Source: Candidatus Omnitrophota bacterium (GTDB taxonomy: Bacteria > Omnitrophota > Omnitrophia > Omnitrophales > Aquincolibacteriaceae). From it: DNA of 64,000 nt. The translations under genes and the position numbers were made by a program. Position 1 is the first letter of the stretch, and every line of letters begins with the position of its first letter. A model generated the notes under the pieces. That model made no database searches, was not told the DNA's origin, and worked only from the letters and a program-made list of their open reading frames with translations. This document shows, in pieces, positions 6,843 through 38,412 of this stretch. The stretch is taken from the NCBI GenBank assembly GCA_022711115.1, contig JAKLFP010000005.1, positions 8,572 to 72,571 on the forward strand, read 5' to 3'.

Positions 6843-7748
6843 GTGGAAGATTATCGCATAAGTAAGCTTCGTCTTCTTGAGGCCGAAAGTATTCACATTA
6901 TTCGTGAAGTGGCCGCGTCTTTCGAGCGTCCCGTCATGCTCTATTCCGTTGGGAAAGATTCCTCCGTCATGGTGCGGCTGGCCCAGAAGGCTTTTCATCC
7001 CGGCAAACTTCCATTTCCTCTTCTTCATGTGGATACCGGCATGAAATTCAAAGAAATGTACCAATTCCGGGATCGGTTCACGAAAGAAATCGGAGCGGAA
7101 TTGCGTGTCTATAAGTTCCAGAAGGCCATGGACCAGGGAACTAATCCGTGGGATCTCGGGACAATCCAATGCTGTGCCCTTCTTAAAACCCAGGCCCTTT
7201 TGAATGCCCTTCAAGAGGGAGGGTATCAAGCCGCGCTTGGAGGTGCCAGGCGGGATGAAGAGAAATCCAGGGCCAAAGAACGTATTTTTTCTTTCCGGGA
7301 CGAATACGGGCAGTGGAATCCCAAGAACCAGCGTCCCGAGATTTGGAAGCTCTATAACACCCTGGCTGGCCAGAAAGAAAGCATCCGCGTTTTCCCGTTA
7401 TCCAACTGGACAGAACTTGATATCTGGCAATATATTCATCTTGAGAAGATCCCTGTGGTTCCGATGTATTTTGCCAAAGAAAGAGAAATGATCCTGCGCG
7501 AAGGGCAGCTGATCCCGCTGGACGGTCCTGTCCCTCTGAGGGAAGGGGAAAAACCCCAAAAGGTTCTTTGTCGATTCAGGACATTGGGCTGCTATCCCTG
7601 TACGGGTGCGGTCCGTTCCGCGGCTGCCACAGTGCCCGAGATTATAGAGGAGATCATGACCGTAAAAAATTCCGAGAGAATTACGCGCCTCATCGATCAT
7701 GATCAGGATTCTTCCATGGAACAAAAAAAGAAGGAAGGATATTTCTAG
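6843..7748 (+). CDS. cysD: sulfate adenylyltransferase subunit 2
   Basis: PAPS-reductase-like fold motif [12 protein letters not shown] and overall CysD-like length and sequence. Its stop overlaps the start of the next gene (TAGTG). Confidence 0.9.
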
Positions 7749-9679
7749 TGCCGCAAGGGGCCAAGAGTGTTCACACAATTCTTGAGCAAAGCGAAAAAGC
7801 GGATCTTCTCCGTTTTACGACCGTAGGAAGCGTGGATGACGGAAAATCAACGTTGATCGGGCGATTACTCTATGAAGCGGGGGGACTTTATGAGGATCAG
7901 CTGGCTGCGATTCGCAAAGACTCCGGGAGATTCAAGCGCGAAGAGTTTGACCTCTCGCTTGCCATGGACGGCCTGAAGGCTGAACGGGAACAGGCAATCA
8001 CCATCGATGTTGCTTACCGTTATTTTTCCACGCCGAAACGCCACTTTATCATTGCCGATACGCCGGGCCACGAACAGTATACGCGCAACATGGCGACAGG
8101 CGCCTCCACGGCCGATCTGGCGATCATCCTGATTGATGCCTGCCACGGTGTTTCCATTCAGTCCAAGCGTCATGCCTTTATCGCTTCGCTTCTCGGTATC
8201 CGGCATATGGTGGTGGCCGTCAACAAAATGGATCTTGTGGATTATTCCGAGGAGGTTTTCCGGAAAGTTGAAGAAGATTTCAATATTTTTGCTGAAAAGC
8301 TGAGAATTTCCGACCTCATGTTCATACCGATCAGCGCGCTGAAAGGGGACAATGTCGTTAAAAAAAGCGGAAACACTCCCTGGTATGAAGGATCGGCCCT
8401 GTTGTCTCATCTTGAGACTGTTCATGTCCAAAGTGACCGGAACCTGATTGATCTGAGGTTCCCAGTGCAATATGTCCTGAGGCCGGACCGAAATTTCCGG
8501 GGATATTGCGGACAACTTGCCGGAGGAGTGCTGCGCAAAAAAGACGAAGTACTGGTTTTGCCTTCTTTGAGGAAAACGCACATTCGATCCATCTCTACCG
8601 GCGAAAAAGAAGTGCCTTATGCCTTTGCGCTTCAATCCATCACCGTGACACTTGAAGACGAAGTCGATGTGACGCGAGGCGATATGGTAGTTCACTCAGG
8701 GAATCTGCCGAAGATCCAGCGTGAAACGGATGCCATCCTCGTGTGGATGGATGAAAAACCCTTAAAAACGGGAGAGGTTTATCTGATCAAACATACCACG
8801 CAGCTTCTCAAAGGGACGGTTGCGCATCTTCATTTCAGCATTGACCCGGATGATCTGAAGCGAAAAAAGGCCAAAGAACTGAAGATGAACGAAATCGGCA
8901 GGGCGACGGTTCAGTTTTTTCGGTCTGTTTTCTGCGATGATTATGCGAGGAACCGTGAAACCGGAAGTTTTATCATGATCGATCCGGTGACCCATGCGAC
9001 TGTGGCCTCAGGAATGATCATCGAGAGAGGGCATCTTCCTTTGATGGCCAAACCGGATGAAAAGGCCTCGGTCAAAAGTCCGTTTCTGCACCGGCAGGAA
9101 GGGATCATATCTCTCAAAGATCGCAGCCGTTTATTGCGCCAAAAACCAGCAACGCTATGGATGACCGGCCTGAGCAGTTCGGGAAAATCCACGATTGCTT
9201 TTGAACTGGAAAAAAGGCTCATGGCTGAAGGTCGCTTGTGTTATGTTCTCGACGGTGACAATGTCCGTTATGGATTGAACCGTGATCTCGGATTTTCGCC
9301 GCAGGACCGGAGCGAGAATATTCGCCGCGTAGCCGAAGTTGCGAATCTTTTTAACGAAGCCGGCGTGATTGTGATCACAGCTTTTATTTCGCCGTACCGG
9401 GAAGACCGGGCACAGGCAAGAAAGATCATCGGGGCTGAACGATTCATCGAGGTTTTCGTGGATGCGCCGGTCGAGGTTTGCGAAACAAGAGATCCCAAAG
9501 GACTTTACAAAAAAGCGAAGAGGGGAGAGATTCCGGAATTTACAGGTGTGAATGCTCCCTATGAAGTGCCGGAATCGCCCGAGGTCCATCTGAAGACCGG
9601 AGAAGAAAGTACGGATCTTTCCGCGGGAAAAGTTTACCAGTATTTGAAGGAACGCGGGTGTCTGGAGGCCTGCGAGTAA
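7748..9679 (+). CDS. cysNC: bifunctional sulfate adenylyltransferase subunit 1 / adenylylsulfate kinase (CysN-CysC fusion)
   Basis: N-terminal GTPase motifs (GSVDDGKSTLIGRL, DTPGH, NKMD) as in CysN. The C-terminal domain has the APS-kinase P-loop LWMTGLSSSGKST and CysC-like motifs (DGDNVR, FISPYREDR). Confidence 0.9.
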   Translation: MPQGAKSVHTILEQSEKADLLRFTTVGSVDDGKSTLIGRLLYEAGGLYEDQLAAIRKDSGRFKREEFDLSLAMDGLKAEREQAITIDVAYRYFSTPKRHFIIADTPGHEQYTRNMATGASTADLAIILIDACHGVSIQSKRHAFIASLLGIRHMVVAVNKMDLVDYSEEVFRKVEEDFNIFAEKLRISDLMFIPISALKGDNVVKKSGNTPWYEGSALLSHLETVHVQSDRNLIDLRFPVQYVLRPDRNFRGYCGQLAGGVLRKKDEVLVLPSLRKTHIRSISTGEKEVPYAFALQSITVTLEDEVDVTRGDMVVHSGNLPKIQRETDAILVWMDEKPLKTGEVYLIKHTTQLLKGTVAHLHFSIDPDDLKRKKAKELKMNEIGRATVQFFRSVFCDDYARNRETGSFIMIDPVTHATVASGMIIERGHLPLMAKPDEKASVKSPFLHRQEGIISLKDRSRLLRQKPATLWMTGLSSSGKSTIAFELEKRLMAEGRLCYVLDGDNVRYGLNRDLGFSPQDRSENIRRVAEVANLFNEAGVIVITAFISPYREDRAQARKIIGAERFIEVFVDAPVEVCETRDPKGLYKKAKRGEIPEFTGVNAPYEVPESPEVHLKTGEESTDLSAGKVYQYLKERGCLEACE

Positions 9680-10593: not shown

Positions 10594-12321
10594 ATGGAAC
10601 GTATACTTCTGATCAATCCATCAGGTTGGCAGAAGGAGAGCATTAATTTAGGACTCTCCTATTTAGCTTCTTCTTTAATGGCCCATGGGTTTGATGTGCT
10701 CATTCTTGATTTGAATCGTTATGAAATGAGCGATGCCGCATTCTTGGAAAATGTCCGTCAGTTTAGTCCTCGTTTGGTTGGAATATCCATAAAAACTGCA
10801 ACAGCACGAGAAGGGGGGCGACTATCGCGACTCCTGAAGGAAGCGATGCCTGAAGTGATTACCGTTGCTGGCGGACCCCACATGTCTCTCTGCCCAGAAT
10901 CTTATATGCGAGATTATCCTTCCATTTCTTTCGGTGTTATGGGGGAGGGTGAGGAAGCTATGGTCCATTTAGCCAAAGCAATATGCAATGGCGGAAAAGT
11001 GGAAAAACTCAACGGGATCGTATGGAGACAGAACGGTCAAATTCTCCTCAATAAATGGATGCCGCCGGAGAACCTCGATGCTCTGATGTTTCCCAACCTT
11101 GATGTGATTCAGGGGTTTAGTTGGAAAAATTTTCGCTACCCAATACTTTCCAGTCGAGGTTGTCCTTTTGGTTGTATTTATTGCTGTGTGAATAAGCTGA
11201 CTGGTTCCAGAAAGTGGCGTTACCGTACTCCGGAAAATGTGGTGGATGAACTGGAATCGCTTGTGCGAACGAAAGGCATCACTTCTTTTGAAATTTGGGA
11301 TGATAACTTTACATTGGACTTGTCGCGTGCGAAAAAAATTTGCCAATTACTTATCGATCGCAAGCTTAATTTATCCTGGTACTGCCATAATGGAATCCGG
11401 GCCGACCGCATTGATGAAGAGCTGGCTCAAATGATGAAAGCGGCGGGTTGCACAAGCCTGGCTTTTGGCGTTGAGAGCGGAAGTCCTGTCACCTTTGCCG
11501 CCATTAAAAAGGGAGAACCCCTTTCCGCAGTCATTAACGCTGTGAAATTAGTCAAAAAGGCCGGTATCAAAGCCGTTGGCTATTTCATCATAGGACTTCC
11601 TGGGGACACTTTGGAAAGGTTTGTTGAAACGGTTTATTTCCAACGATCCCTCGAGTTGGATCATTATGTCTACGGCATGCTCATCCCTTATCCCCATACG
11701 GAACTCTGGGAAATAGTACAAACTCATGGAACTATGTTCTGCGAAATTACCGAAACACAACACTTCAGCGATGACATGGTTCCAATCTCGTTTGAGCTGC
11801 CAGATTTTCCGAAAGCCGATATGATTCGAGCGTTCTATATTGCCAAATATTTCGACTTGTTTGATGCAATCCGGCAGGTTGCTGACAGCGTCAACCTAAC
11901 CGTGGTCCATCATGTCTCTCCTCCCATGATAAGTCATCTGCCGGGCATGTTTATTGCCGGAGGCTCGAAAATTTGCCATGTAGTCGTTGGCGGGGATGAG
12001 GCTGTTGTGCGGGCACTGCCTTCTTTCACGCAGGTACCAAACACAACCAAAATATTATTTTCTGATAACATGCCTTCAGACATTCCTTTTGAAAATCAAA
12101 TAGCTGTCGTCGATCAAGGCTCTAATATATTGGAACGCATTTCTCCCGATTCCGGCCTTGTCTTATTCGATGCGAGGCGGCCGCTTCGTCATTTGACTCT
12201 AGTGCGGCTTCCCAAGGCTGGATCTTTGGGTGCGCGCGGAGCACCTGACAGTGATTTGAAAAACGATGAAAAGAAGAATGTGTTTTCCAAAGCACTGGAT
12301 GCTTTGGGTATTCATCCATGA
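10594..12321 (+). CDS. B12-binding-domain radical SAM protein (copy 1) with C-terminal extension
   Basis: N-terminal Rossmann-like cobalamin-binding region (ILLINPSGW ... VAGGPH). The radical SAM cluster motif is CPFGCIYCC, followed by a glycine-rich SAM motif. About 175 aa of unassigned C-terminal tail. Confidence 0.8.
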   Translation: MERILLINPSGWQKESINLGLSYLASSLMAHGFDVLILDLNRYEMSDAAFLENVRQFSPRLVGISIKTATAREGGRLSRLLKEAMPEVITVAGGPHMSLCPESYMRDYPSISFGVMGEGEEAMVHLAKAICNGGKVEKLNGIVWRQNGQILLNKWMPPENLDALMFPNLDVIQGFSWKNFRYPILSSRGCPFGCIYCCVNKLTGSRKWRYRTPENVVDELESLVRTKGITSFEIWDDNFTLDLSRAKKICQLLIDRKLNLSWYCHNGIRADRIDEELAQMMKAAGCTSLAFGVESGSPVTFAAIKKGEPLSAVINAVKLVKKAGIKAVGYFIIGLPGDTLERFVETVYFQRSLELDHYVYGMLIPYPHTELWEIVQTHGTMFCEITETQHFSDDMVPISFELPDFPKADMIRAFYIAKYFDLFDAIRQVADSVNLTVVHHVSPPMISHLPGMFIAGGSKICHVVVGGDEAVVRALPSFTQVPNTTKILFSDNMPSDIPFENQIAVVDQGSNILERISPDSGLVLFDARRPLRHLTLVRLPKAGSLGARGAPDSDLKNDEKKNVFSKALDALGIHP

Positions 12322-12567: not shown

Positions 12568-13800
12568 ATGAAAATTCTTCATATTTGTGATTGGTATACC
12601 CCTATTGGGGGAGCCGAGAAACTTCTTTTCGGGACACTTGATAGGCTGGAGCAAAAAGGCCACACAAATATCGTGGTTTTCAACGAACATCCCCATCAGG
12701 GCCTGACGGGGAAGCGTGCTGAGTATGCCTGCAAGTTTCTGGAGCTTTTTGTGTATTTTCATCCTGACGCACCCTCTTTCGCAATGCAGTCTATTCCGCG
12801 ACTCAAGGAGATTATTGACCGGCATGCCCCTGATGTCTGTCATATCCACAATTTTCAAAATCCCTATGCGACAGAATTTTTGCTTGAAGAAATTCCCTGC
12901 GTTCGTTCTATTCACGATCCTCGCCTCTATTGTTTTACGAACTGGCGGTTACTGCCGGATCGCAGTATTTGCCCTTACCCTCTTGGTGTTGAATGTCTTC
13001 GACAAGGTTGTTTGTCTTCCGGGCTAAAGCCGAAGACCGATTTTGATAGGAACGCTTTTTGGGTATTGAGGCATCACAACCTGCATAAAAAGATGCCGGC
13101 GCTTATCCTGGAAAGCCGGATGCAAATGGACTGTATGATCCAGAACGGATTTTCACCGAAACAGCTTTTCTGGCTGCCTAATTCGACGTCGATTCAGCCC
13201 ATAACCGAGGTGCGGGAGTTTGTGGAAAAACACCATGACCCGAATGAACGCATCGTTCTGTTTGTCGGGCGGGCTTCGTATGAAAAGGGGATTCATGTGC
13301 TGGTGGAATCTTGTCGGTATCTTCGCAGTGACTGCAAGATTGTAATTATCACAGCGGGTCCTTTGCTTGAAGAGATCCAGCAGCAAGCTGCTGAATTTGG
13401 CGATCGCATTGAGGTGATTCCCGGGCTGTCTTATGAAGAAACCCGGGTCTACTATGCTCGAGCCTCCGTGGTGGCGGTCCCATCGGTTTGGCTTGAAAAT
13501 TTCTGTCTGGTCGGTCTGGAGGCCTTTGCCAATATGAGGCCCGTGATTGGTTCTCGTATCGGGGGTATCCGCGACTGGATGAAAGAGGAAGAGACAGGAT
13601 GGTTTTTTGAGCCGGGGAATTCAAAAGATCTGGCGGCTAGAATCGATAACGCATTCGAGAACAAAGAACGTCTTCAAGCCATGGGTGAGAGTGCGTATCG
13701 GCGAGTACAAACATATTATAACCAGGATCTCTATACCTTTCGTTTGTTAGAAATTTATTCAAAAGGAATCGAATATTTTAATGCTGAGAGGTGTCTGTGA
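12568..13800 (+). CDS. glycosyltransferase family 1 (GT4-like), copy 1
   Basis: N-terminal MKILHICDWYTPIGGAE and a C-terminal GT-B nucleotide-sugar-binding region (EAFANMRPVIGSRIGGIRDW). It is a paralog of the protein at 28071-29342. Confidence 0.75.
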   Translation: MKILHICDWYTPIGGAEKLLFGTLDRLEQKGHTNIVVFNEHPHQGLTGKRAEYACKFLELFVYFHPDAPSFAMQSIPRLKEIIDRHAPDVCHIHNFQNPYATEFLLEEIPCVRSIHDPRLYCFTNWRLLPDRSICPYPLGVECLRQGCLSSGLKPKTDFDRNAFWVLRHHNLHKKMPALILESRMQMDCMIQNGFSPKQLFWLPNSTSIQPITEVREFVEKHHDPNERIVLFVGRASYEKGIHVLVESCRYLRSDCKIVIITAGPLLEEIQQQAAEFGDRIEVIPGLSYEETRVYYARASVVAVPSVWLENFCLVGLEAFANMRPVIGSRIGGIRDWMKEEETGWFFEPGNSKDLAARIDNAFENKERLQAMGESAYRRVQTYYNQDLYTFRLLEIYSKGIEYFNAERCL

Positions 13801-14846
13801 AGGTCGCTTTGGTAAAGACACACAACCAGGTGCGTCTGGATGAGATCAAGACACCTGTGCCGAGTCCGGGTGAGGTTCTGCTTCAAATCGATGCTTGTGG
13901 TGTCTGCGGTAGCGACTATCTTGAGGCGACGGCTTGGGCGCACTCGTGGAAGCGTTTTGGTCATGAAATAGCCGCCACAGTATTTGCTACAGGAAACGGG
14001 GTAGAAGGATTCGCGGTGGGAGATCAAGTGGTTGTGGCGCTCTCTGTTGCTTGTGGGACATGCAAAAGCTGCCTAGCGGGTCATCCAAGACATTGTTCTC
14101 GTCTTATTATTGCAGAGCAAGGCGGTTTTGGAGATTATTTGTTGGTCAAAGATACCCGCCTTTTATTCAAAGTGGAGCCTCGCCTTCCGGTTGAATTAGC
14201 GGTCTTCACAGAGCCTGTTACCGTTGTGTTGGATGCTTTCCATCTTGTTGAATTAAAACCGGAAGATAAATTAGTAGTGATTGGCGGTGGTTTTATCGCC
14301 TGTATCGCTCTTTTGATCGCCAAGATTCTTGGGGTGATCCATCCCTTGGTATTAAGCCGCAAATCTCATCCGCTGCTGGATGCCTGTCTGGCATCGACAG
14401 GAGGGGATTATGTTTCATGGCTTGCAGTGGGAGAACATACGGTGGCAGCGCCAGAGACTTTTGCACAAAAACTCGCAGAACATACAGGACGTGTTGTGGC
14501 CATCCATACAGCTCCCGCCAAGTTCATGCCTCTTTATATTGAAAAATTGCCCTATGATTCTTGTGTCGTGAATTTGGGTTTGTCTGCAAGCGACAAAGAT
14601 AATGAGATGCCATTGGATGCATCGCGGCTTATTTTTAAAAGAATGCAAATTATGAGTGCTTTTCCGGTTCCCTGTCTTTACCTTGCGGAGGCGGTTCATC
14701 TTCTCCAGAAAAATCAGGATTTATTTTCTCTCCTGACCCCTGAAAGTCTTCCTCTCGAGCGGTTACCGGAAGTGATTGCAGCACCCCGGAAATTAAAACG
14801 TAAAATCATGATCGTTTCCCAACCGTCCGGAGGATTACGATCATGA
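13791..14846 (+). CDS. zinc-dependent medium-chain dehydrogenase/reductase (sorbitol/threonine dehydrogenase-like)
   Basis: CGVCGSD and GHE catalytic-zinc motifs, a structural-zinc Cys cluster (CGTCKSC...C) and a GGGFIA Rossmann motif. The start is 13791 (GTG) or 13797 (GTGA overlap with the upstream stop). Confidence 0.75.
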   Translation: MSVKVALVKTHNQVRLDEIKTPVPSPGEVLLQIDACGVCGSDYLEATAWAHSWKRFGHEIAATVFATGNGVEGFAVGDQVVVALSVACGTCKSCLAGHPRHCSRLIIAEQGGFGDYLLVKDTRLLFKVEPRLPVELAVFTEPVTVVLDAFHLVELKPEDKLVVIGGGFIACIALLIAKILGVIHPLVLSRKSHPLLDACLASTGGDYVSWLAVGEHTVAAPETFAQKLAEHTGRVVAIHTAPAKFMPLYIEKLPYDSCVVNLGLSASDKDNEMPLDASRLIFKRMQIMSAFPVPCLYLAEAVHLLQKNQDLFSLLTPESLPLERLPEVIAAPRKLKRKIMIVSQPSGGLRS

Positions 14847-17023
14847 GCTCAAAAGGTTCGCATACCAGGCCTATTTTTATCACCGCAAGGTTTCGAAGCG
14901 GTTCCACCCTTCTCTGGAATCTTTTTCGCAACCTACCGGGTTGCCTTGCTTTTTATGAACCCTGCAATGACCTTCTCACCACTCATATCGAGATAGATAC
15001 CAAACCCCCTCCGTCACATCAGGGAGTGACTTCCTATTGGGACGAGTATCGACCTATATTGGAAGAGTTGCGTTTGCGGTATCGTCAGGAATTCGGTCTG
15101 AACCATTTGTATTTAGAAAACCAGGATACGTATCCTGATTTTGAGAATTATATCCGTTTTTTGCTGAAAGCAGCTTCGGGAAAAGTCCCGGTGCTCCAGT
15201 TTAACCGAATAGATTTTCGTCTGCCATGGCTGCGCGAACGCTTTCCGAATGCATTTATTTTACACCTTACCAGAAATTCCAGAGATATGTGGTTTTCCAT
15301 GATACGAGGTCTCTCGGGTGAATCCTGGCGGGATCCTTTGGAAAACACGAACTATGATCTTTTGCTGTGGTCTGTAGCTCTTTCCAGTGAGTTTCCGTTT
15401 CTGTTTAGTCCTGAAGTTAAAACGACCTATCATCGTCATTATCTTCTCTGGCGGCTCAGTGGGCTCATGGGGACACAGCAAGCTGACATGACGCTGGATT
15501 TTGATCGTGATCTGCTTGGAACCCGGGAGAAGACACTTCAATTAATCACAGATCTTGTGGGAGCTGACAACGCGGAGATCGAACGTCTTGCGAAGCTGGT
15601 GGTCATGCCCGAAACTGGCGGTTGGAGAAAGTTGATCGATGGGCGCTGGTTTACTAAGGCCGAAATGGAATGTGATGCGCTTCTCGAAGAGTTAGGGCTT
15701 TTGGAGGATTTTGGGAAAAAACCGCTTGCAAGCATAAGAAAAAAACATCTTTCAGCATGGAATCATGCGACAGCTGCGGCAACGGAAAGGGTGGCTAAAG
15801 CGTCCGCAAAACTGTTCGGAATGCTGCGACGGGACCGGCTAGTTTTAGGTAAGGATCATGAACAATATGTGATCAATAGTGGAAATGTTATTCGCCATGA
15901 TAAAAAGTTGCTCGAGGATGCCGCTCACCGTTTAAACTCCGTGCAACAAAACTTTCAGGAAGCAGAGGAGTCGTTGCGTCTCAAACAGCAAGCATTTGAA
16001 GAAAGCCAAAAGGTTTTAGCAAACACCCAGACTGCACTTGAAAATAAGAGGCAGGAACTGGTTACGATCAATCAGCGTTATTCGGAGGTGCAGGAACAAT
16101 TACGCGCCAAGCAGCAAGCATTTGAAGAAAGCCAAAAAGTTTTAGCAAGCACCCAGACTGCACTTGAGAATAAGCGGCAGGAGCTGGTTTCGATAAACCA
16201 GCGTTATTCGGAGAAGCAGGAACAATTACGCGTCAATCAGCAAGCATTGGAAGAAAGCCAAAAGGTTTTAGCAAGCACCCAGACTGCGCTTAACAGTAAG
16301 AACCAGGAGTTGGTTGCGATAAATCAGCGTTATTCAGAGACGCAGGAACAATTACGTGTCAATCAGCAAGCATTCGAAGAAAATCAAAAAGTTTTGACGG
16401 GTACGCAGACTGAGCTCAACAGTAAGAGTCAGGAGCTAGCGGCGCTAAGCCAGTGTTTTTCAGAGACGAAGGATCTGTTGCGTGTCAAGCAGCAGGAATT
16501 CGAGGAAAGCCAAAAAGTTTTAGCAAACACCCAGACTGCGCTTGAAATTGAGAGGCAGGAGCTGGTTGCGATAAATCAGCGTTATTCGGAGACGCAGGAA
16601 CAATTACGCGTCAAACAGCAAGCATTTGAAGAAAGCCAAAAAGTTTTAGCAAGTACCCAGACTGCACTTGAAAATAAGAGCCAGGAGTTGGTTGCGATCA
16701 ATCAGCGTTATTCGGAGACGCAGGAACAATTACGTGTCAATCAGCAAGAATTCGAGGAAAGCCAAGAGGCTCTTTCGGATGCGCAAAATGGACTCAATGA
16801 AAAAGAGCGGGAACTCATTTTGATGAAGGAGACTCTTGGAGAAATGCGCCTGGAATTACACAAAGAAAGATCGGAGCTGGAAAATGCGCAAGAAATACTT
16901 ACTAATACAAGAATTATTTTAGCCCAAAATGAACAGATTTTGCGTGAAACCGCGCTTAGGGTTCAGCCGAAGCAATTTTTTCAAAAAAATTTCATAATTA
17001 AAAAAATAAAAAAATTTTTTTAA
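14843..17023 (+). CDS. sulfotransferase-domain protein with long C-terminal coiled-coil repeat region and basic amphipathic C-terminus
   Basis: The N-terminus has the PAPS 5'-phosphosulfate-binding motif (PIFITARFRSGSTLLWNLF) and the 3'-phosphate-binding motif (LHLTRNSRDMWFS). Residues about 378-671 are 7 tandem 42-aa heptad-like repeats (LRxKQQAFEESQKVLAxTQTALENKxQELVxINQRYSExQEQ). The C-terminal tail is KQFFQKNFIIKKIKKFF. ATGA overlap with the upstream gene. Confidence 0.75.
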   Translation: MSSKGSHTRPIFITARFRSGSTLLWNLFRNLPGCLAFYEPCNDLLTTHIEIDTKPPPSHQGVTSYWDEYRPILEELRLRYRQEFGLNHLYLENQDTYPDFENYIRFLLKAASGKVPVLQFNRIDFRLPWLRERFPNAFILHLTRNSRDMWFSMIRGLSGESWRDPLENTNYDLLLWSVALSSEFPFLFSPEVKTTYHRHYLLWRLSGLMGTQQADMTLDFDRDLLGTREKTLQLITDLVGADNAEIERLAKLVVMPETGGWRKLIDGRWFTKAEMECDALLEELGLLEDFGKKPLASIRKKHLSAWNHATAAATERVAKASAKLFGMLRRDRLVLGKDHEQYVINSGNVIRHDKKLLEDAAHRLNSVQQNFQEAEESLRLKQQAFEESQKVLANTQTALENKRQELVTINQRYSEVQEQLRAKQQAFEESQKVLASTQTALENKRQELVSINQRYSEKQEQLRVNQQALEESQKVLASTQTALNSKNQELVAINQRYSETQEQLRVNQQAFEENQKVLTGTQTELNSKSQELAALSQCFSETKDLLRVKQQEFEESQKVLANTQTALEIERQELVAINQRYSETQEQLRVKQQAFEESQKVLASTQTALENKSQELVAINQRYSETQEQLRVNQQEFEESQEALSDAQNGLNEKERELILMKETLGEMRLELHKERSELENAQEILTNTRIILAQNEQILRETALRVQPKQFFQKNFIIKKIKKFF
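15974..16855 (+). repeat. 7 x 126-bp in-frame tandem repeat inside the sulfotransferase gene
   Basis: Repeat units start at 15974, 16100, 16226, 16352, 16478, 16604 and 16730. Long stretches are identical between units (for example caagcatttgaagaaagccaaaa(g/a)gttttagcaa). Confidence 0.85.
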
Positions 17024-17056: not shown

Positions 17057-18790
17057 ATGGAAAACAAAAAAACTACACTTATCGAATTGGCTCTTTCACG
17101 ATTTAATTTCGCATTTAAAAAACCGAACAATTTTTTTGCAATGTTGCTTAGATACTTTTTAAAAGCAAAGAATAGAAATGATGCGATACCGACATTTATT
17201 AATTTAATTCATTCCCAGCATCCTTATGGGATGACAGTCAATGGTGTTGGTGGTCTGCAAGAAGGTGATAAGGGTTTGTATCGCTGGTTTTCAGGAAGTG
17301 AGACAATACTCCGATTCAAGTTGCCTCAGGAAAAAAATATGCAACTCTGTCTGGATTTTTACAACACCTTTCCTAACCAGAGCATATCGGTCATAATCAA
17401 TGGCCATGTCATGGAATCTTTTAATGATATTCATCCCGGGGCCAGAATAAAAAAACGGTACTCTTTTGAGGGGCATGCCAGTAACGAAATCGTACTGCAA
17501 TATAAAAAAACAAATAAATCACTCAAGCTTTATCCTGACGACGCAAGAGATTTAGCGGCAATCTTTTTTGAATTCAAAGTTCTTTTTAGCGATGTAAATG
17601 CGAACCGCCATTTGCAACGATTCGATCTTTCGTCGATTACATATCTTGGATCACCCCTTAAAAACGCTAGGCTGAATCGAGAAGAATATGAGAAGGGGCG
17701 AACGATTCTGAGAAGTCTTCCTTCTGTGGTAACATTAGCCTTGACGACATATTGCAACAATAAGATCCCGTGCCTCATTTGTGACAGGGTTACCCGTAAT
17801 AGGGTCACTGATTGCGACATCAGTGAAGAAATAATTAACAGTGCCAGTCCATTGCTTAAAACCGCGATGTATGTATTATTACATTCTGGTGGGGAGGCGA
17901 TGCTCTCACGACATTATGATAAACTAATAAAAGAAATTAATCCTCCCACACGAGTTTCTTTTGCTACAAACGCCATGCTCATGACGCCTAAACGGGCGGA
18001 TCTGATGCTTGAGAGGGATATTATGGCCGGTATCGTCATATCGTTAGATGCGGCTACGCCGGAGATGTACCGGCTCATGAGGCCAGGTTCGAACTTTGAA
18101 ACCGTGATTAAAAATGTCGCTTATTATATTGACAAGGCTAAAAGTTTAAATCGACATCACTCTAATGTTGATCTTAATATGACGCTTTGCAACTCCAATA
18201 TCATGGATGTCCCTAAACTGGTTGATCTTGCAAAGAAAATTGGTGCCCGCAGCATAAGTTATACTCATCTTAATATCGGGCTTCACCACAAAGTTCAGAC
18301 AGTCGAGGGTTGGGAGTGGGATTATGTCGAACAGATGAATTTTAAAAACAAGGAGCTGCATGACGATTTACTTTTTGAAGCCTATACTACAGCGAAAAAA
18401 AATGGGATAGTCATTTCTCTGCCATCGAATCGTCCCTACATCGGAAAAAACGCAGAAAAATATAATCAGTCAATGCTCAAAACTCCTTGTGAAATTCCTT
18501 TTCAAGAGAGTCAAGGGGTAAAGCATTGGGATTCGCGGTATCATCATAAGATCGCACCCCATATTCCGCTATGTTTTAAGCCTTGGCAGGAAATAGCTAT
18601 TCTCCCGGACGGGGCAACAAGAATTTGTTGCTTCCATGGTAGGGAATTCTACATTGGATATCTTCGGATGAACAATTTTATGAACATTTGGAATTCCGAT
18701 GTAATGGTAGCAACTCGGGAGCAATTTCTGGCTCATGGTGTGGCTCGTGTATGTGTAGAGTCGCAGCCTTGTCCTCACCGCCCGAAGTAA
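17057..18790 (+). CDS. radical SAM-like protein with non-canonical Cx5Cx2C cluster motif and Cys-rich (SPASM/twitch-like) C-terminus
   Basis: TYCNNKIPCLIC followed about 40 aa later by the glycine-rich SAM motif LLHSGGEAML. The C-terminus has CCFHG...CVESQPCPH. About 220 aa of N-terminal domain could not be assigned. Confidence 0.5.
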   Translation: MENKKTTLIELALSRFNFAFKKPNNFFAMLLRYFLKAKNRNDAIPTFINLIHSQHPYGMTVNGVGGLQEGDKGLYRWFSGSETILRFKLPQEKNMQLCLDFYNTFPNQSISVIINGHVMESFNDIHPGARIKKRYSFEGHASNEIVLQYKKTNKSLKLYPDDARDLAAIFFEFKVLFSDVNANRHLQRFDLSSITYLGSPLKNARLNREEYEKGRTILRSLPSVVTLALTTYCNNKIPCLICDRVTRNRVTDCDISEEIINSASPLLKTAMYVLLHSGGEAMLSRHYDKLIKEINPPTRVSFATNAMLMTPKRADLMLERDIMAGIVISLDAATPEMYRLMRPGSNFETVIKNVAYYIDKAKSLNRHHSNVDLNMTLCNSNIMDVPKLVDLAKKIGARSISYTHLNIGLHHKVQTVEGWEWDYVEQMNFKNKELHDDLLFEAYTTAKKNGIVISLPSNRPYIGKNAEKYNQSMLKTPCEIPFQESQGVKHWDSRYHHKIAPHIPLCFKPWQEIAILPDGATRICCFHGREFYIGYLRMNNFMNIWNSDVMVATREQFLAHGVARVCVESQPCPHRPK

Positions 18791-18852: not shown

Positions 18853-19638
18853 ATGATTAAATTAATACGCCATAATCGTCACCTGATTGCATCGATGGTT
18901 GCGCGCAATCTAAAGGCCCGATTTGCCGGGACTGCCATGGGAATACTCTGGTCATTTTTTTTACCACTCGTCCAGGTTTGTATCTATACCTTTGTATTCT
19001 CTGTCATCATGCATGCCAAAGCCCTTGGAGAATACCAGCATGTGCCGTTTCCGATATGGCTCTGCGCAGGGTTACTTCCTTGGAACATGTTTAGCGAGGG
19101 TTTGGGGATGGCTGTAGGTTCCATTACCGGGAATTCTCACATTGTCAAAAAGACGATGTTTGATAAAAGGATATTACCGCTTTGTTCGGTTATTACCAGT
19201 CTTGTCAACCACGGTATCGCTCTTTCAGTCCTGCTGGTTTTTATGTTGTTTTTCGGAATCCGTCCGGGATGGACCCTTTTGTGTTTGCCCCTAGTGAGCG
19301 TGATCGTGTTCTTATGGACGCTAGCTTGGGCCTATATCGTTGCCGCTTTGAATGTTTTTTTGCGTGATATCAGTCAAATGGTGGGAGTTATTTTAAACTT
19401 TTGTTTTTTTGCAACGCCTATTGTTTATTCTAAGGATCTTGTGCCGCCGGTTTTTGGAATGATTGTCAAAGCAAACCCGTTTTTTTATCTTTTACAAGCG
19501 TACCGAGAGATTATTTTGCTGAACAAGCTGCCCAATATTTTTGAATTATGCGTCGTCACAGCAGGGATCACGCTTTTTCTGTCTGCTGCGGTTTATTTAT
19601 TTAAGATTTTATCGTACGATTTTGCCGACTCTCTTTAG
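18853..19638 (+). CDS. wzm: ABC-2 type polysaccharide export permease (Wzm/TagG family)
   Basis: 261 aa with 6 TM segments. The N-terminus NRHLIASMVARNLKARFAGTAMGILWSFFLPL is characteristic of Wzm/KpsM-type permeases. Confidence 0.8.
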   Translation: MIKLIRHNRHLIASMVARNLKARFAGTAMGILWSFFLPLVQVCIYTFVFSVIMHAKALGEYQHVPFPIWLCAGLLPWNMFSEGLGMAVGSITGNSHIVKKTMFDKRILPLCSVITSLVNHGIALSVLLVFMLFFGIRPGWTLLCLPLVSVIVFLWTLAWAYIVAALNVFLRDISQMVGVILNFCFFATPIVYSKDLVPPVFGMIVKANPFFYLLQAYREIILLNKLPNIFELCVVTAGITLFLSAAVYLFKILSYDFADSL

Positions 19639-19655: not shown

Positions 19656-20978
19656 ATGGAAAATAAAGTACTGATCACGGTGGATGAGATATCGAAAAAA
19701 TACAAATTGTATAATAAGCCGTTTGACCGGTTGAAGGAATTGGCGGATCCCTTCCGGAGGCAATATCATCGTGATTTTTGGGCCCTTCGCGATATTTCTT
19801 TTGAAGTCCGCAGGGGAGAAAGCGTGGGTATTATTGGCGTGAATGGCAGCGGTAAATCCACCCTGCTTCAAATCATCTGCGGGATATTGAAACCCACGAA
19901 AGGTCAGGTGGAGGTCAACGGACGGATTTCAGCGCTCCTGGAGCTTGGGTCGGGATTCAATCCTGAATTGCCCGGCCGTGACAATGTCTATCTGCAAGGG
20001 GCTATGCTGGGATATTCGCCTCAAGAAATGAAAAGAAAATTTAACAAGATAGTAGAATTTGCGGATATCGGTGATTTTTTGGACCAGCCGGTTAAAACAT
20101 ACTCGTCCGGTATGATGATCCGTTTGGCATTCGCAGTGGCGATTCAGATTGATCCCGAAATTTTGATCGTCGACGAAGCCCTTTCCGTGGGAGATGTTTT
20201 TTTTCAGTCGAAATGTTTTCGAAGAATCGAAGAGCTATGCAACAAAGGTGTCACGATCTTATTTGTCTCGCATCAGCTAAGTACGATCCAATCCGTGTGC
20301 CAAAAGGCTATTCTGCTCGACAAGGGAAGGATTGTCTGCCAGGGAGATTCCAGAACCACAGTGGAGGCTTACATCCGTCATATTGCCACGTTGCATGGAG
20401 CCAGGGATATGGCAACGATCCAAGAAGATATACGGATTGAAAAAGAAGTCAAGGAAACGGTCGCCGCGGAAGATCATTCGAAAGACAACCTGGGCGATGA
20501 ACGTTTTTCAGCAACGAATCGTTATGGGACCGGCAAAGCGAGGCTTCTAAAATATGTCGTCAATGATTTGAATAATTGCAAGCAGATAGTGGTTCAATCC
20601 GCGGCTTCTTTAAAGATCCGGTTGACCTATAAAACACATGCGAGGATAGAAAAACCTTTTGTGGCTATTCGTATCAATACTGTTACAGGTGTTCAGATCT
20701 ATGGCAATAATACGACCTTTGCTAACGTTTCTTTGGAGTCTTGTTCAAAAGGAGATGAGATTGAAGTGGAGTTTGAGCAGTATTTGTACCTGAATCAAGG
20801 AAGCTATTTGCTGACATTCGCTTTTGCCGAATGGGGTGAACATGGGAAAGTAATCCATATCGATCGGTTTGTTGATGCGGTTCACATTAATGTAGCCGGC
20901 GGTCCTTATCCCTACGCCGGAATATGTAATTTTCAAGGGAAAGTAACCGTGCTTAATCATACGAAACAGGAGGCATGA
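19656..20978 (+). CDS. wzt: polysaccharide ABC exporter ATP-binding protein with C-terminal glycan-binding domain (Wzt/TagH family)
   Basis: Walker A GVNGSGKSTL, ABC signature YSSGMMIRLAFA and Walker B ILIVDEALSVGD, plus a C-terminal domain of about 190 aa as found in Wzt. Confidence 0.85.
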   Translation: MENKVLITVDEISKKYKLYNKPFDRLKELADPFRRQYHRDFWALRDISFEVRRGESVGIIGVNGSGKSTLLQIICGILKPTKGQVEVNGRISALLELGSGFNPELPGRDNVYLQGAMLGYSPQEMKRKFNKIVEFADIGDFLDQPVKTYSSGMMIRLAFAVAIQIDPEILIVDEALSVGDVFFQSKCFRRIEELCNKGVTILFVSHQLSTIQSVCQKAILLDKGRIVCQGDSRTTVEAYIRHIATLHGARDMATIQEDIRIEKEVKETVAAEDHSKDNLGDERFSATNRYGTGKARLLKYVVNDLNNCKQIVVQSAASLKIRLTYKTHARIEKPFVAIRINTVTGVQIYGNNTTFANVSLESCSKGDEIEVEFEQYLYLNQGSYLLTFAFAEWGEHGKVIHIDRFVDAVHINVAGGPYPYAGICNFQGKVTVLNHTKQEA

Positions 20979-21703
20979 TGGAAAAGGTGGTTTTTACAAG
21001 TATCCCTAAAACTGGAACGCATCTTTTATTGAGATATTTTTATTTTATTAACTTTAAACAAGCTGGACCCTATGCTGTCCCCTTTTTTGACAAAAAATTT
21101 TACGACTTTATCAGAAATTTAAAATCTGGCGAATACAGCGTGTGGCATTATCACTGGAGTGAAGAACTTGCCGCGATCACTCGTGACGTAGGAGCAAAAG
21201 TTGTTTTTCTCTATAGAGATCCCCGTGCCTGGGTCAGTTCTACGCTGCATTGGATCATGCGGTCACCGACAAACCCCCTTCACGAATTATTTGCGAACCA
21301 TTTTAAGACTGATCAGGAAAGAATTGAAGTATTGATCAAGGGTTCGAACAGCGATGCAATTTCCCCTCCAATTCAAAGTATGAATAATTTTTGGCATACC
21401 TACGAGGGATGGCTGTATGAGCCCAATGTTTATAAAGTACGTTTTGAGGACATTATAGGGCCTCGAGGCGGCGGAGATAAAGAAACGCAACTGCGTGTCT
21501 TGGGTGAATTAATGCAATTTACAGGGGTGAGGAATGAATCGGTCACTAAAGAAGAGATTATCGATCAGCTTTTTTCTTCTGAGGTCGAGACGTTCCGAAA
21601 GGGAACTATCGACTCATGGCGTGAGGATTTTACCCCCGAACTCCACGACTTGTTTTTGAAGGAGGCCGGTGAATTGCTTAAAGTCTGGGGATATGCCCCT
21701 TAA
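20975..21703 (+). CDS. sulfotransferase-domain protein (tandem paralog 1)
   Basis: 5'-PSB-like motif TSIPKTGTHLL and 3'-PB-like motif FLYRDPRAWVSS. ATGA overlap with the wzt stop. Confidence 0.65.
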   Translation: MMEKVVFTSIPKTGTHLLLRYFYFINFKQAGPYAVPFFDKKFYDFIRNLKSGEYSVWHYHWSEELAAITRDVGAKVVFLYRDPRAWVSSTLHWIMRSPTNPLHELFANHFKTDQERIEVLIKGSNSDAISPPIQSMNNFWHTYEGWLYEPNVYKVRFEDIIGPRGGGDKETQLRVLGELMQFTGVRNESVTKEEIIDQLFSSEVETFRKGTIDSWREDFTPELHDLFLKEAGELLKVWGYAP

Positions 21704-21820
21704 GGCATGTCAGTAAGACCAGAAAACGATTCATGGGCCTAGGCCACCAGCAAATTTCATGTGGCAACATGGAAATCTTAATTAACAGGGATCATATAAA
21801 AATCGTCTGGAAAGCAGCTG

Positions 21821-22618
21821 ATGGAAAAAGTGCTTTTTGTGAGTATCCCGAAATGCGGAACGCATCTTTTATGGCGATATTTCCCTTTTGTGGGTTTTAA
21901 GTATGAAGGCCCGTACGATGCCGCTTCATTCAAAATAGAATTTTATGATTATGTTCGAAATTTAAAAGAAGGGTTTTACAGCGCCTATCATTTTCTTTTG
22001 ACGGAAGAATTGTCAGAAATCATCAGATCGAATGGCATTAAAACCGTTTTTTTATATCGTGATCCCCGGGCACAAATTTGCTCAAATAAGAATTATATCC
22101 TAAAAACGCCTTCCCACATATTGCATCGGCATTTTACGGAAGATATGACCGATGATGAAGACAGAATCAAACTGCTCATTCAGGGGTTTGATCCCGACAA
22201 GGATAAGCTATACAAAGAGATTTACCAGAAGCCCATGTACCCTATTTCTTTTCGAAAAAAAGGTCCTGATTTTAAATTTCGAGGAGGGATTAACGCGCTT
22301 TATAGTACCTACGCCCCGTGGCTTGAAGCACCCAACTGCTATTGTGTCCGTTTTGAGGATTTGGTGGGTCCTAAGGGCGGAGGCAGCGCTGAGCGACAGT
22401 TGCAAGTCGTTCGTGAATTAATGGATTTCACGGGGACACCTCGTGGAAGATTAGATCCGAAAGAAGTCGCCAATATCCTTTACAATGAAAAGGCAGATAC
22501 GTTTCATAAAGGTCAAATTGATTCGTGGCGGGAAGAATTTACTCCGGAGTTGCACAAAATCTTTATGCGCGAAGCCGGTGAATTACTGAAATATTGGGGC
22601 TATCCAGAGGATGTTTGA
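21821..22618 (+). CDS. sulfotransferase-domain protein (tandem paralog 2)
   Basis: VSIPKCGTHLL and FLYRDPRAQICS motifs. Its C-terminus (DSWREEFTPELHKIFMREAGELLKYWGY) is nearly identical to that of paralog 1. Confidence 0.65.
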   Translation: MEKVLFVSIPKCGTHLLWRYFPFVGFKYEGPYDAASFKIEFYDYVRNLKEGFYSAYHFLLTEELSEIIRSNGIKTVFLYRDPRAQICSNKNYILKTPSHILHRHFTEDMTDDEDRIKLLIQGFDPDKDKLYKEIYQKPMYPISFRKKGPDFKFRGGINALYSTYAPWLEAPNCYCVRFEDLVGPKGGGSAERQLQVVRELMDFTGTPRGRLDPKEVANILYNEKADTFHKGQIDSWREEFTPELHKIFMREAGELLKYWGYPEDV

Positions 22619-35132: not shown

Positions 35133-35253
35133 GAGAAATTCCTCATATGAGTAATAAATATTATTCATTTACTTTATACATCGAACTGTGCCATAATGCA
35201 ACCCTTAAATGGGCAACTCAAAAGCTTTCTGCAGTTCTAACCAGGAGGAAATC

Positions 35254-37842: not shown

Positions 37843-37992
37843 CGAATTTATGAGCAAGGCGATTTCTGAAAAAAAGTTGGCACGCTATTCCTCCTTGGTT
37901 TGGTAAGCGTGCCTTCTTTTTCACAAGGAAAGTCTAACCCCTGCTTTATAACGTTCAAGGGAAGCACATTTTTAAAAAAAGGAAGGAAGACA

Positions 37993-38412
37993 ATGAAAAA
38001 AAATATATTCAAAATAGCGAGTCTCTGTTTTCTCATGTTTTGCGTTGCTTCGCTGGGCGTTGTTGCTTACGGTGAGGATGTCACGGAAAAAACCCCCGAA
38101 GGTTGGAGCAAAGGGCTGAAAAAAGGCTGGCAGGGGAATATGCCTCCCGGGCTTTCGAAAAAAGAAAGCAAAAAGATAAGTAAAGAAGCTGAAAAGGCTG
38201 CAAAGGAAGTTGACAAGCAAAAGAAAAAAGCAGAGAAAGAAGCCAAAAAGGCTCAGAAGCAAGCAGAGAAAGATGCCAAGAAAGCCAAGAAGCAAGCTGA
38301 AAAAGAAGCCAAGAAGCAGAAGAAAAAAGCAGAAAAAGAGGCTAAGAGAGCAGAAAAAGAAGCCCGAAAGGCCCAGCAACAGGCTGAAAAAGAAGCGGGG
38401 AAAGTTTCTTAA
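37993..38412 (+). CDS. small secreted Lys/Ala/Glu-rich repeat protein
   Basis: Signal peptide MKKNIFKIASLCFLMFCVASLGVVAYG, then about 90 aa of AEKEAKKAQKQ-type degenerate repeats. RBS AGGAAGG upstream; the ORF-track start at 37900 was rejected. Confidence 0.5.
   Translation: MKKNIFKIASLCFLMFCVASLGVVAYGEDVTEKTPEGWSKGLKKGWQGNMPPGLSKKESKKISKEAEKAAKEVDKQKKKAEKEAKKAQKQAEKDAKKAKKQAEKEAKKQKKKAEKEAKRAEKEARKAQQQAEKEAGKVS

Follow-up and report, generated by a model that had tools for sequence, protein, structure and literature searches.

Gene content of the locus

We analyzed a 64-kb stretch of DNA (the window), which carries one co-directional cluster that includes Wzm, Wzt with Wzt_C, cysDNC, glycosyltransferases and a Wzy_C ligase-like gene. 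Within this cluster lies a seven-gene cassette, in the order B12-binding radical SAM enzyme, GT4 glycosyltransferase, dehydrogenase, a sulfotransferase-coiled-coil protein (the stalk protein), radical SAM/SPASM protein, Wzm, and Wzt with a carbohydrate-binding module (CBM). The genes concerned are as follows:

6843..9679, + strand: CysD and CysN/CysC, supply of PAPS, the sulfate donor (Pfam PAPS_reduct, GTP_EFTU, APS_kinase)
10594..12321, + strand: B12-binding radical SAM enzyme, first cassette gene (Pfam); position kept in L001, L006-L009 and L013
12568..13800, + strand: GT4 glycosyltransferase, 410 aa, candidate polymerase (Pfam); 409-411 aa in relatives
13791..14846, + strand: Zn-dehydrogenase-like protein (ADH_N) of the cassette (Pfam)
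14843..17023, + strand: sulfotransferase-coiled-coil gene, 726 aa; its ATG overlaps the upstream dehydrogenase stop by 4 nt (ORF list, translation)
17057..18790, + strand: radical SAM/SPASM protein of the cassette (Pfam)
18853..19638, + strand: Wzm, ABC-2 permease (Pfam PF01061)
19656..20978, + strand: Wzt ATPase with C-terminal carbohydrate-binding module (Wzt_C, aa 287-424; PF00005, PF14524, E 2e-26)
20975..22618, + strand: two stand-alone sulfotransferase-like proteins, both lacking a coiled coil (Pfam Sulfotransfer_1)

The seven-gene cassette was found in seven loci, namely the window and L001, L006, L007, L008, L009 and L013. Against NCBIfam, the stalk protein matched only generic coiled-coil models (SMC, Rad50), regarded as noise, and its neighbors matched no specific family.

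Catalytic head and stalk

The sulfotransferase-coiled-coil gene can be divided into five parts:

14843..15748, + strand: catalytic head, aa 1-302, with a PAPS-sulfotransferase fold
15749..15973, + strand: stalk base, aa 303-377, a helix continuous from the head (AF2 helix 303-376, pLDDT above 93)
15974..16855, + strand: tandem array of seven 126-bp units, aa 378-671; each unit is 42 aa, or six heptads
16856..16957, + strand: conserved C-terminal motif, aa 672-705, LxDEKxExxxxQxVLxQTQxMLAxxExKL, equivalent to a degenerate eighth unit
16958..17020, + strand: basic, aromatic tail, aa 706-726, ending ...PKQFFQKNFIIKKIKKFF, with a net charge of +6

By fold and motifs, the N-terminal half of the protein is assigned to the PAPS-dependent sulfotransferase superfamily, and the corresponding activity is predicted. 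The Pfam match to Sulfotransfer_3 (PF13469) on aa 10-178 is marginal, at 27.8 bits against a cutoff of 27. The head carries an RFRSGST 5'-phosphosulfate loop (aa 16-22) and an R144...S152 3'-phosphate motif, and in an alignment of 72 homologues the residues of both are invariant or reach at least 90% conservation. The AF2 model of the head has a pLDDT of 96.1, and PDB ranks 1-41 in Foldseek were all PAPS sulfotransferases, with E values down to 1e-4, TM of 0.3-0.5 and identity of at most 16%. A PDB sequence search using the head domain returned nothing meaningful, and the PDB holds no sequence-level relative.

Heptad tracking placed the register of the stalk from about aa 352 (nt 15896), from which it runs unbroken to aa 705. 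Each of the 42 array heptads has L, F or Y in the same place; at the second core position, four residues on, most have Q or N, an atypical choice for a canonical hydrophobic core. The stalk contains three Gly and zero Pro. With six heptads per unit, one unit corresponds to ~6.2 nm (42 x 0.148 nm), and the stalk would extend ~54-61 nm if continuous. In the full-length AF2 monomer, helices 303-518 and 522-706 are separated by a break at G520 in unit 4, and stalk pLDDT is 45-79. The 34-aa C-terminal motif aligns gaplessly across eight cassette proteins.

Structure and age of the tandem array

A preliminary description of this DNA had proposed seven in-frame 126-bp units at 15974-16855, and this array is real. 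TRF detected a single array at 15981-16765 (period 126, 6.2 copies, 83% matches, 0 indels, score 1045), with by far the highest score among repeats of the 64-kb window, and all seven boundaries at 15974 + 126k are in frame with the ORF at 14843-17023. Each unit translates to a 42-aa module, LRVxQQxFEESQKVL..., and the seven modules sum to 294 residues of the stalk helix. A non-coding origin of the repeat was ruled out by the long ORF, the in-frame units, the lack of indels and a dN/dS below 1.

Calling the units near-identical overstated their likeness, which ranges from 58 to 91% at the nucleotide level. Units 1, 2, 3, 5 and 6 share pairwise identities of 85-91% (79-90% in amino acids), unit 4 is 69-78% and unit 7 is 58-60% identical to the others, and a degenerate eighth unit at ~36% nucleotide identity begins at 16856. 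No two units share an exact run longer than 38 nt, and k-mers of at least 41 nt each occur only once within the seven-unit gene. A sequence block quoted as shared by units 1, 2 and 6 was broadly right, except that a further difference in unit 6 (agcaagTaccc) had been missed.

Synonymous drift, thought to be lacking, is present. By the Nei-Gojobori method, the five closest units differ from one another at a dS of 0.23-0.57, units 4 and 7 reach ~1-1.7, and dN/dS is 0.09-0.42 among the closest five (0.09-0.51 when units 4 and 7 are included). Judged from the dS of 0.23-0.57 and the dN/dS of 0.09-0.42, the array as a whole is old and its units are under purifying selection, which contradicts a recent expansion of the entire array. 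The array is nevertheless younger than the split from a relative (P0002, 67% identical), whose own 63-bp array is unrelated.

Seven- and eight-unit assemblies

The following positions of the array differ between assemblies:

16216..16357, + strand: placement interval of a one-unit (126-bp) indel relative to L003, L004 and L012, comprising unit 3 plus a 15-nt microhomology, GCAGGAACAATTACG
16226-16351: unit 3, within the indel placement interval
16638..16642, + strand: A5 run in unit 6; A4 in assembly L005, with truncation at 601 aa (P0001, ...ESQKF*)

L003/L004 (Candidatus Omnitrophota MAG; JGI contig) match positions 4843-27023 of the window with 0 mismatches apart from a 126-bp insertion, a span of 22,181 bp that is 100% identical when this one insertion is allowed. 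The inserted 126 bp is a perfect additional unit 3, giving a protein of 768 aa as against 726 aa. The same unit3-unit3 junction occurs in L012, from another JGI dataset, the contig of which ends inside the duplicated, perfect period-126 stretch. Assemblies with seven and with eight units thus differ, and we infer that both alleles exist in nature. Length variation between genomes is plausible because the assemblies are identical apart from the unit-3 copy and the third record breaks inside the duplication; the support from these assemblies is direct and inconclusive. A single-unit change would then separate otherwise identical genomes, the recent event being either a perfect duplication of unit 3 at the 15-nt microhomology or its reversal through a 141-nt perfect repeat.

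Copy-number variation had been anticipated in the preliminary description, and the extra unit 3 and the junction in L012 speak for it, although short-read collapse would mimic the seven-unit form. The assemblies compared had seven or eight units, with no 6- or 9-unit allele found: P0001 was the sole match when the repeat half of the protein was used as a query, and a 31-mer scan of metagenome contigs gave no further alleles. A protein-based scan of metagenome contigs recovered two loci only, both short and distant.

The eight-unit allele contains 141 nt of perfect period-126 repeat, and exactly one 141-mer is repeated in it. Since the eight-unit allele includes every 141- and 142-mer of the seven-unit allele, the loop could be bypassed in a short-read graph. 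A further 125 141-mers are private to the eight-unit allele, and therefore reads with the unit3-unit3 junction must exist. This nesting, together with the end of L012 within the duplication, makes the earlier warning of an assembly hazard well founded. Collapse among the diverged units was ruled out as a source of this hazard by the absence of repeated k-mers of at least 41 nt, and the ambiguity concerns unit-3 multiplicity only.

It is possible, if rather unlikely, that the difference between seven and eight units is itself an assembly artifact, with one fixed count that includes at least two identical copies of unit 3 and with the loop skipped by the window and L005 in a short-read de Bruijn graph. 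At k of 141 or below, the eight-unit graph includes the seven-unit path as a sub-path; L005 is a short-read contig built by MEGAHIT at k141, and L012 stops in the perfect period-126 stretch, as an unresolved loop predicts. Moreover, both differences among otherwise identical assemblies (the unit indel and A5/A4) fall in the 882-bp array, which an error hotspot fits as well as a mutation hotspot. However, a pure eight-unit population would give full loop coverage, at which an assembler normally breaks, as in L012, instead of running through, and the array is internal to ~222-kb contigs in both the window and L005. The remaining units are also too diverged to collapse, and stalk-length variation is the rule among relatives.

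The suggestion that the repeats recombine readily is weak for the seven-unit form, with its 38-nt run, and reasonable for the eight-unit form, with its 141-nt perfect repeat. The near-identical units of a hypervariable repeat are not found here, and a perfect 141-nt repeat is present only in the eight-unit allele. A contingency (phase-variable) locus, with high-frequency on/off or length switching within a clone, is very improbable: otherwise identical 22-kb loci do differ by two independent changes within the array, one an indel of a single unit and the other a -1 frameshift in A5, but the units are a poor slippage substrate because they are 9-41% diverged and share at most 38 nt of identity, A5 is shorter than typical slippage tracts, and the frameshift is confined to one short-read assembly (L005). 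For genome curation, the array is a place where short-read assemblies cannot fix copy number.

Stalk length among relatives

The lengths of the cassette neighbors are constant across loci, and only the stalk protein varies (419, 467, 490, 497, 528, 659 and 726/768 aa). Its length changes mostly in whole heptads, with both ends conserved and the middle variable. The distance from a conserved FG to the C-terminal motif is 100, 100, 149, 163, 170, 380 or 422 residues, all of which equal 2 mod 7. This spacing is found in 7/9 proteins, or in 6/8 when the window protein and its eight-unit allele (P0121) are merged, and binomial arithmetic gives a chance probability of ~0.001-0.007 for such agreement. 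The two exceptions (2/9) are P0003 and P0018, the latter having a 53-aa repeat that is no heptad multiple. Independent arrays with heptad-multiple units are also present in relatives: L006 has one with a 63-bp (21-aa) unit, and P0093 and P0088 have 7-aa and 14-aa repeats. Within this one cassette type the stalks range from 13 to 61 nm, a very broad span should glycan length follow stalk length. The relatives may be viewed as a natural series graded across this range, suggesting that rulers of this type evolve by whole-heptad module duplication between two conserved ends.

Proposed capping and length-setting function

In-frame repeats change protein length in YscP (the T3SS needle ruler), phage tape-measure proteins, and streptococcal M and alpha-C proteins, and in protein rulers the length of the protein sets that of another structure. 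The repeats of those rulers and surface proteins are usually much nearer identical than the units described here and vary at measurable frequency, and the proteins and their pathways are unrelated to the array.

Coiled-coil rulers are the accepted means by which glycan length is measured in ABC-transporter-dependent pathways. Terminators of such pathways typically bear a coiled-coil ruler, with the CBM of Wzt binding the terminal cap (PMC11231755). In WbdD, insertions into the coil raise the modal chain length and truncations lower it (PMC5082667). Two features of this terminator class are present at the locus, where a modifying enzyme is fused to an extended coiled coil and Wzm and a CBM-bearing Wzt are encoded two genes downstream, as they also are in six further loci. 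We consider it rather probable, based on gene context and comparison, that the repeats are the modular, length-setting middle of a coiled-coil stalk on a sulfotransferase that caps a surface glycan and sets its chain length. Such a ruler would fit both the gene context and the comparative pattern. On the model of WbdD, WbbB and other terminators of this kind, the PAPS-dependent head (aa 1-302) would sit on a single long heptad-repeat helix (~aa 303-705) of presumed oligomeric state, and its putative terminator activity would sulfate a growing undecaprenyl-linked chain at the non-reducing end only once the chain was long enough to reach the head. The Wzt CBM would then recognize this predicted sulfate cap, and the chain would be exported. 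Gain or loss of one unit would shift the stalk by ~6.2 nm and leave the heptad phase unchanged, and therefore the predicted ruler would change modal chain length in quantal steps.

The closest parallel to this arrangement is with WbdD (E. coli O9a and K. pneumoniae O3/O5), which likewise has an N-terminal capping enzyme followed by an extended C-terminal coiled coil, and the gene of which lies in a Wzm/Wzt cluster with a CBM-bearing Wzt (PMC11231755). The head of WbdD, however, is a kinase/methyltransferase rather than a PAPS sulfotransferase, with no sequence homology, and its stalk is ~20 nm as opposed to ~54-61 nm here if continuous. Tandem 42-aa modules are a feature of the present protein, in which an oligomeric state, a membrane helix and a polymerase-binding site comparable to those of WbdD are at most putative. 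Membership of the WbdD family was ruled out; because only a sulfotransferase domain was detected, with no methyltransferase or kinase, the protein is at most a functional analogue. A reading of the tail as a WbdD-like amphipathic membrane helix was dropped, its hydrophobic moment of 0.30 being no higher than that of shuffles (p 0.42). No conservation of the tail was found in relatives, and membrane anchoring is unsupported because the tail is neither demonstrably amphipathic nor conserved.

Varied terminating chemistries (Kdo transferase, methyltransferase-kinase) on coiled-coil rulers, with variable module organization, are also seen in WbbB (K. pneumoniae O12) and the ORF7-O4 and ORF6-O7 terminators (PMC11231755). 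These have glycosyltransferase or methyltransferase-kinase heads, some with a polymerase glycosyltransferase on the same chain; the cassette described here has its sole glycosyltransferase as a separate GT4 protein. Natural variation in coiled-coil length among strains has been described for putative terminators, themselves presumed methyltransferases, of E. coli group 3 capsule loci, which belong to another enzyme class and organism, and for which the passage concerned gives no tandem-repeat basis or unit size (PMC13171606).

A different role for the coiled coil, as a mere oligomerization or tethering scaffold of a polymer-decorating sulfotransferase, with its length drifting neutrally by repeat gain and loss and glycan length not set by it, is unlikely, though less so than the hairpin discussed below. 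The roughly five-fold range of stalk length among loci of the same cassette would suit a scaffold, as would the two to three further sulfotransferases in the cluster, by which sulfation need not be restricted to a cap. Two relatives break the heptad-phase rule, and the Wzt adjoining P0088 is without a CBM. Neutral drift is nonetheless difficult to reconcile with purifying selection on the units (dN/dS 0.09-0.42), and the conserved stalk ends and mostly phase-preserving length changes argue for a rigid, phase-sensitive spacer. In every system studied, moreover, the combination of a coiled coil and a Wzt CBM is the mark of the terminator/ruler strategy (PMC11231755).

An intramolecular antiparallel coiled coil, resembling the hairpin of an SMC arm, with its turn in unit 4, units 1-3 paired with units 5-7 and the C-terminal motif returning to the stalk base, seems quite unlikely. 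In its favor, the AF2 monomer helix is broken only at 519-521 (G520), which leaves one arm of 216 residues and another of 185. No other internal unit is as divergent as unit 4, about which the seven units are arranged symmetrically (3 + 1 + 3), and the stalk base and C-terminal motif are both conserved. However, AF2 often folds long amphipathic helices of monomers back artifactually, the pLDDT near the break is below 50, and a lone Gly breaks a helix only weakly. With eight units (4 + 1 + 3) the symmetry would be lost, and relatives with short stalks (100-residue spacer) have no obvious hinge.

Returning to the ruler that we favor, known examples come from a few enterobacterial serotypes with methyl, phosphomethyl or Kdo caps, and this locus would extend the principle to sulfate capping and to a conserved cassette rich in radical SAM enzymes. 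Literature searches found no precedent for a sulfotransferase terminator or a terminal sulfate cap. We tentatively raise the broader and rather unlikely idea that sulfate is a previously unrecognized chain-terminating cap in ABC-transporter-dependent glycan assembly, added by a widespread sulfotransferase family of roughly 1,400 members with a heptad-multiple ruler, of which 7- and 8-cassette forms occur in otherwise identical genomes of this Omnitrophota population. If the polymorphism of seven and eight units is real, these natural alleles could be used to test stalk length against chain length, and would amount to an experiment of nature, with glycan length adjusted in ~6-nm steps by gain or loss of a single repeat.

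Of the homologues lacking a coiled coil, the one examined for its context (L002, 341 aa) sits among flagellin genes and has no accompanying Wzm/Wzt. The only two labelled cassette loci carry the labels Candidatus Omnitrophota MAG and Maridesulfovibrio MAG, and in the wider sulfotransferase family some matches are labelled Desulfobacterales.

Structure and age of the repeat array

By Tandem Repeats Finder, positions 15981-16765 hold one strong array with a period of 126 and 6.2 copies (83% matches, no indels, score 1045), which outscores every other tandem repeat of the 64-kb window by far. As the preliminary description had proposed, unit boundaries recur every 126 nt from 15974 (15974 + 126k); all are in frame with the ORF at 14843-17023, and each unit translates into 42 residues of the form LRVxQQxFEESQKVLxxTQTALxxKxQELVAINQRYSETQEQ. 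A vestigial eighth unit begins at 16856, directly after the array. The repeat is genuine, lies in coding sequence and can be interpreted in functional terms. Another in-frame repeat, far weaker and K/A/E-rich with a 33/66-bp period, occurs at 38221-38358, inside the ORF at 37900-38412.

The units had been described as near-identical and lacking synonymous drift. Units 1, 2, 3, 5 and 6 are only 85-91% identical in nucleotide sequence among themselves, while unit 4 is 69-78% and unit 7 58-60% identical to the other units. The longest exact run common to two units is 38 nt, and the seven-unit gene contains no repeated k-mer of 41 nt or longer. Drift was found: by the Nei-Gojobori method, the five closest units are separated by dS of 0.23-0.57, units 4 and 7 give ~1-1.7, and dN/dS among units is 0.09-0.51. 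These are old units that have evolved under purifying selection, and the proposed recent expansion fails for the array as a whole, holding for a single unit in sister assemblies.

Seven- and eight-unit forms in the assemblies

Clustered at 90% identity with the closest database match is a 768-aa protein (HOW58345.1) of a Candidatus Omnitrophota MAG. Its locus, L003, and a JGI contig identical to it, L004, match window positions 4843-27023 with no mismatches over 22,181 bp and differ from the window only by an additional, perfect 126-bp unit 3. This indel may lie anywhere within 16216-16357; perfect periodicity extends over 141 nt, comprising 126 nt plus the 15-nt microhomology GCAGGAACAATTACG. 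In a separate JGI dataset, contig L012 is mismatch-free against the eight-unit form over 6,162 bp; it carries the unit3-unit3 junction and ends inside the duplicated stretch. The seven-unit assembly L005 (ENA ERZ27257456, k141_525586, MEGAHIT k141) agrees with the window over 21.8 kb save for one A, lost from the A5 run at 16638-16642 in unit 6 (11796-11800 region of L005). Two products of 601 and 111 aa result, the former without the conserved C-terminal motif, through either a real frameshift or an assembly error. Both differences among these otherwise identical loci fall inside the 882-bp array (chance p ~0.0016, (882/22181) squared), so the array is a hotspot of mutation, assembly error, or both.

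The initial warning of an assembly hazard was apt. All 141- and 142-mers of the seven-unit allele are also present in the eight-unit allele, in which exactly one 141-mer is repeated, so a de Bruijn assembler with k<=141 could skip the loop and derive the seven-unit path from eight-unit reads; assembly at such k cannot tell two unit-3 copies from three. The eight-unit allele has 125 private 141-mers, and reads with the unit3-unit3 junction must therefore exist. A loop with full coverage normally breaks a contig, as happened in L012, whereas the array of the window lies well inside its contig. The other six units are too diverged for mis-assembly, and we consider it fairly probable that both alleles are real. 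Gain of the eighth unit would involve exchange within 15 nt of identity and should be rare, and the 141-nt perfect repeat of the eight-unit form would readily support loss or additional gain. Overall the array is stable, with a locally unstable fresh duplicate.

Sulfotransferase head and coiled-coil stalk

The repeats belong to a 726-aa protein in which residues 1-302 form a compact domain (AlphaFold2 pLDDT 96.1). Each of the 41 PDB structures that match this head best is a PAPS-dependent sulfotransferase (TPST, SULTs, CurM-ST, Stf1), at identities of at most 16% and modest TM-scores. No sequence-level relative was found in the PDB, and the Pfam Sulfotransfer_3 match is barely over threshold. 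The RFRSGST loop and an R144...S152 motif are conserved across 72 homologues.

A helix exits the head from residue 303, and residues ~352-705 keep a single heptad register with zero stutters. L, F or Y occupies the same heptad position in 42 of 42 array heptads; four residues on stands mostly Q or N, a polar core position unusual for a coiled coil. Proline is absent from the stalk, and glycine occurs three times. Since one unit is exactly six heptads, gain or loss of a unit would change the rod by ~6.2 nm (42 x 0.148 nm) and leave its phase unchanged. The final 34 residues of the rod (aa 672-705) carry the motif LxDEKxExxxxQxVLxQTQxMLAxxExKL, which aligns without gaps in eight relatives; the rest of their stalks is unalignable. 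The C-terminal tail is basic and aromatic, not measurably amphipathic and not conserved, and a membrane helix like that of WbdD, a known coiled-coil chain terminator, is unsupported there.

The stalk could instead be an intramolecular hairpin, as the full-length AlphaFold2 monomer would suggest: the only helix break in the ~400-residue stalk is at residues 519-521 (16400-16408), at G520 in unit 4, the most divergent internal unit, with exactly three units on either side. Fold-back is, however, a common artefact of monomer prediction, and stalk pLDDT is low (45-79). Around this break, the eight-unit allele would be arranged 4 + 1 + 3.

Gene cluster and conserved cassette

The gene lies in a co-directional glycan cluster (~5.3 to 31.7 kb).

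Genes of the cluster
5353-6771, Wzy_C protein (ligase-like; WaaL/PglL-like), opening the cluster
CysD and CysN/C, PAPS supply
TauE
10594-12321, B12-radical SAM enzyme (core)
GT4 glycosyltransferase (core)
Zn-dehydrogenase-like protein (core)
14843-17023, sulfotransferase-coiled-coil protein (core)
17057-18790, radical SAM/SPASM protein (core)
Wzm (core)
Wzt with C-terminal Wzt_C carbohydrate-binding module (CBM; core)
two stand-alone sulfotransferases
further glycosyltransferases

The seven-gene core (B12-radical SAM, GT4, dehydrogenase, sulfotransferase-coiled-coil, radical SAM/SPASM, Wzm, Wzt-CBM) recurs in the same order in six more loci (L001, L006, L007, L008, L009 and L013), whose sulfotransferase heads are 43-67% identical to that of the window (47-67% by BLASTP; P0020 43% in the alignment). 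Neighbour lengths are constant: GT4 409-411 aa (419 aa in L001, with an uncurated ORF start), dehydrogenase 346-352 aa, Wzm 259-271 aa and Wzt 428-442 aa. The coiled-coil protein measures 419, 467, 490, 497, 528 or 659 aa in the other loci and 726 or 768 aa in the seven- and eight-unit forms of the window locus. In the one such neighbourhood examined (L002), a coiled-coil-less homologue of 341 aa lies amid flagellin genes, without Wzm/Wzt. At L014 4046-7436, a more distant family member (P0088, 570 aa, with 14-aa tail repeats) directly follows Wzm and a 263-aa Wzt without CBM.

Stalk length among relatives

Spacer length was counted between the conserved FG that closes the catalytic domain and the first residue of the C-terminal motif.

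Spacer length (residues) and remainder modulo 7
P0006, 100, 2
P0020, 100, 2
L001 protein, 149, 2
P0004, 163, 2
P0002, 170, 2
Window protein, 380, 2
Eight-unit allele (P0121), 422, 2
P0003, 210, 0
P0018, 328, 6

Six of eight spacers (or five of seven) share one class (p ~0.001-0.007, binomial, with proteins taken as independent). Relatives carry arrays of their own, unrelated to the 126-bp array: 63 bp (21 aa) in L006 (3.3 copies, 89% matches), 7-aa and 14-aa repeats in P0093 and P0088, and a 159-bp repeat pair in L008. Between L001 and L007, 89-91% identical in DNA with neighbours all of equal length, the stalks differ by a 61-aa segment. The stalk is thus the length-variable part in evolution, changing by internal duplication, usually of whole heptads, and spanning ~13 to 61 nm, if continuous. 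It could also be a mere scaffold of drifting length, which the purifying selection and the conservation of both ends and of phase make less likely.

A putative chain terminator and ruler

In the ABC-transporter-dependent systems studied, a Wzt CBM is always paired with a terminal cap, and the capping enzyme bears a coiled coil acting as a ruler (PMC11231755). Insertions in the WbdD coil raise, and truncations lower, modal chain length (PMC5082667). The coiled coils of putative methyltransferases in E. coli group 3 capsule loci are described as varying naturally in length (PMC13171606). The protein studied here follows the same logic as WbdD, an enzyme head on a coiled coil, but its head is a sulfotransferase. 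We infer that it is a terminator/ruler of the coiled-coil type, in which a sulfotransferase head sits on a modular stalk built of repeats, a variant on known rulers; the early remark about a putative ruler was apt. A chain long enough to reach the head would be sulfated at its non-reducing end, the sulfate cap would license export via the Wzt CBM, and stalk length would set chain length. Neither a sulfate cap nor a sulfotransferase terminator turned up in the literature searched.

Other genes in and around the cluster

An STT3/PglB-type oligosaccharyltransferase, DUF2304 and GT2 lie beside the cassette at L007 1-633 and L013 12721-14673, replacing the Wzy_C protein of the window, so the glycan polymer may be attached to protein instead of, or besides, lipid A-core. 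Three radical SAM enzymes lie in the cluster, two of them B12-binding and one of the SPASM type (10594-12321, 17057-18790 and 26221-28074), and two of the three are conserved cassette members; none reached an NCBIfam family cutoff. Radical SAM chemistry is unusual in a polysaccharide locus. Just downstream of the sulfotransferases, a 707-aa ORF (22735-24858) of the same length in L003, L004 and L005 has no Pfam or NCBIfam match. In four loci, an autotransporter beta-domain protein of ~330-350 aa, with little else, lies within a few kb of the cassette.

Beta-domain proteins
Window, 35209-36261
L001, 2766-3791, minus strand
L007, 2727-3752, minus strand
L009, 4440-5432

A PEP-CTERM-tagged protein encoded just downstream of the glycan cluster (33101-34003) is a hint that an exosortase-type system for surface proteins may lie close by.
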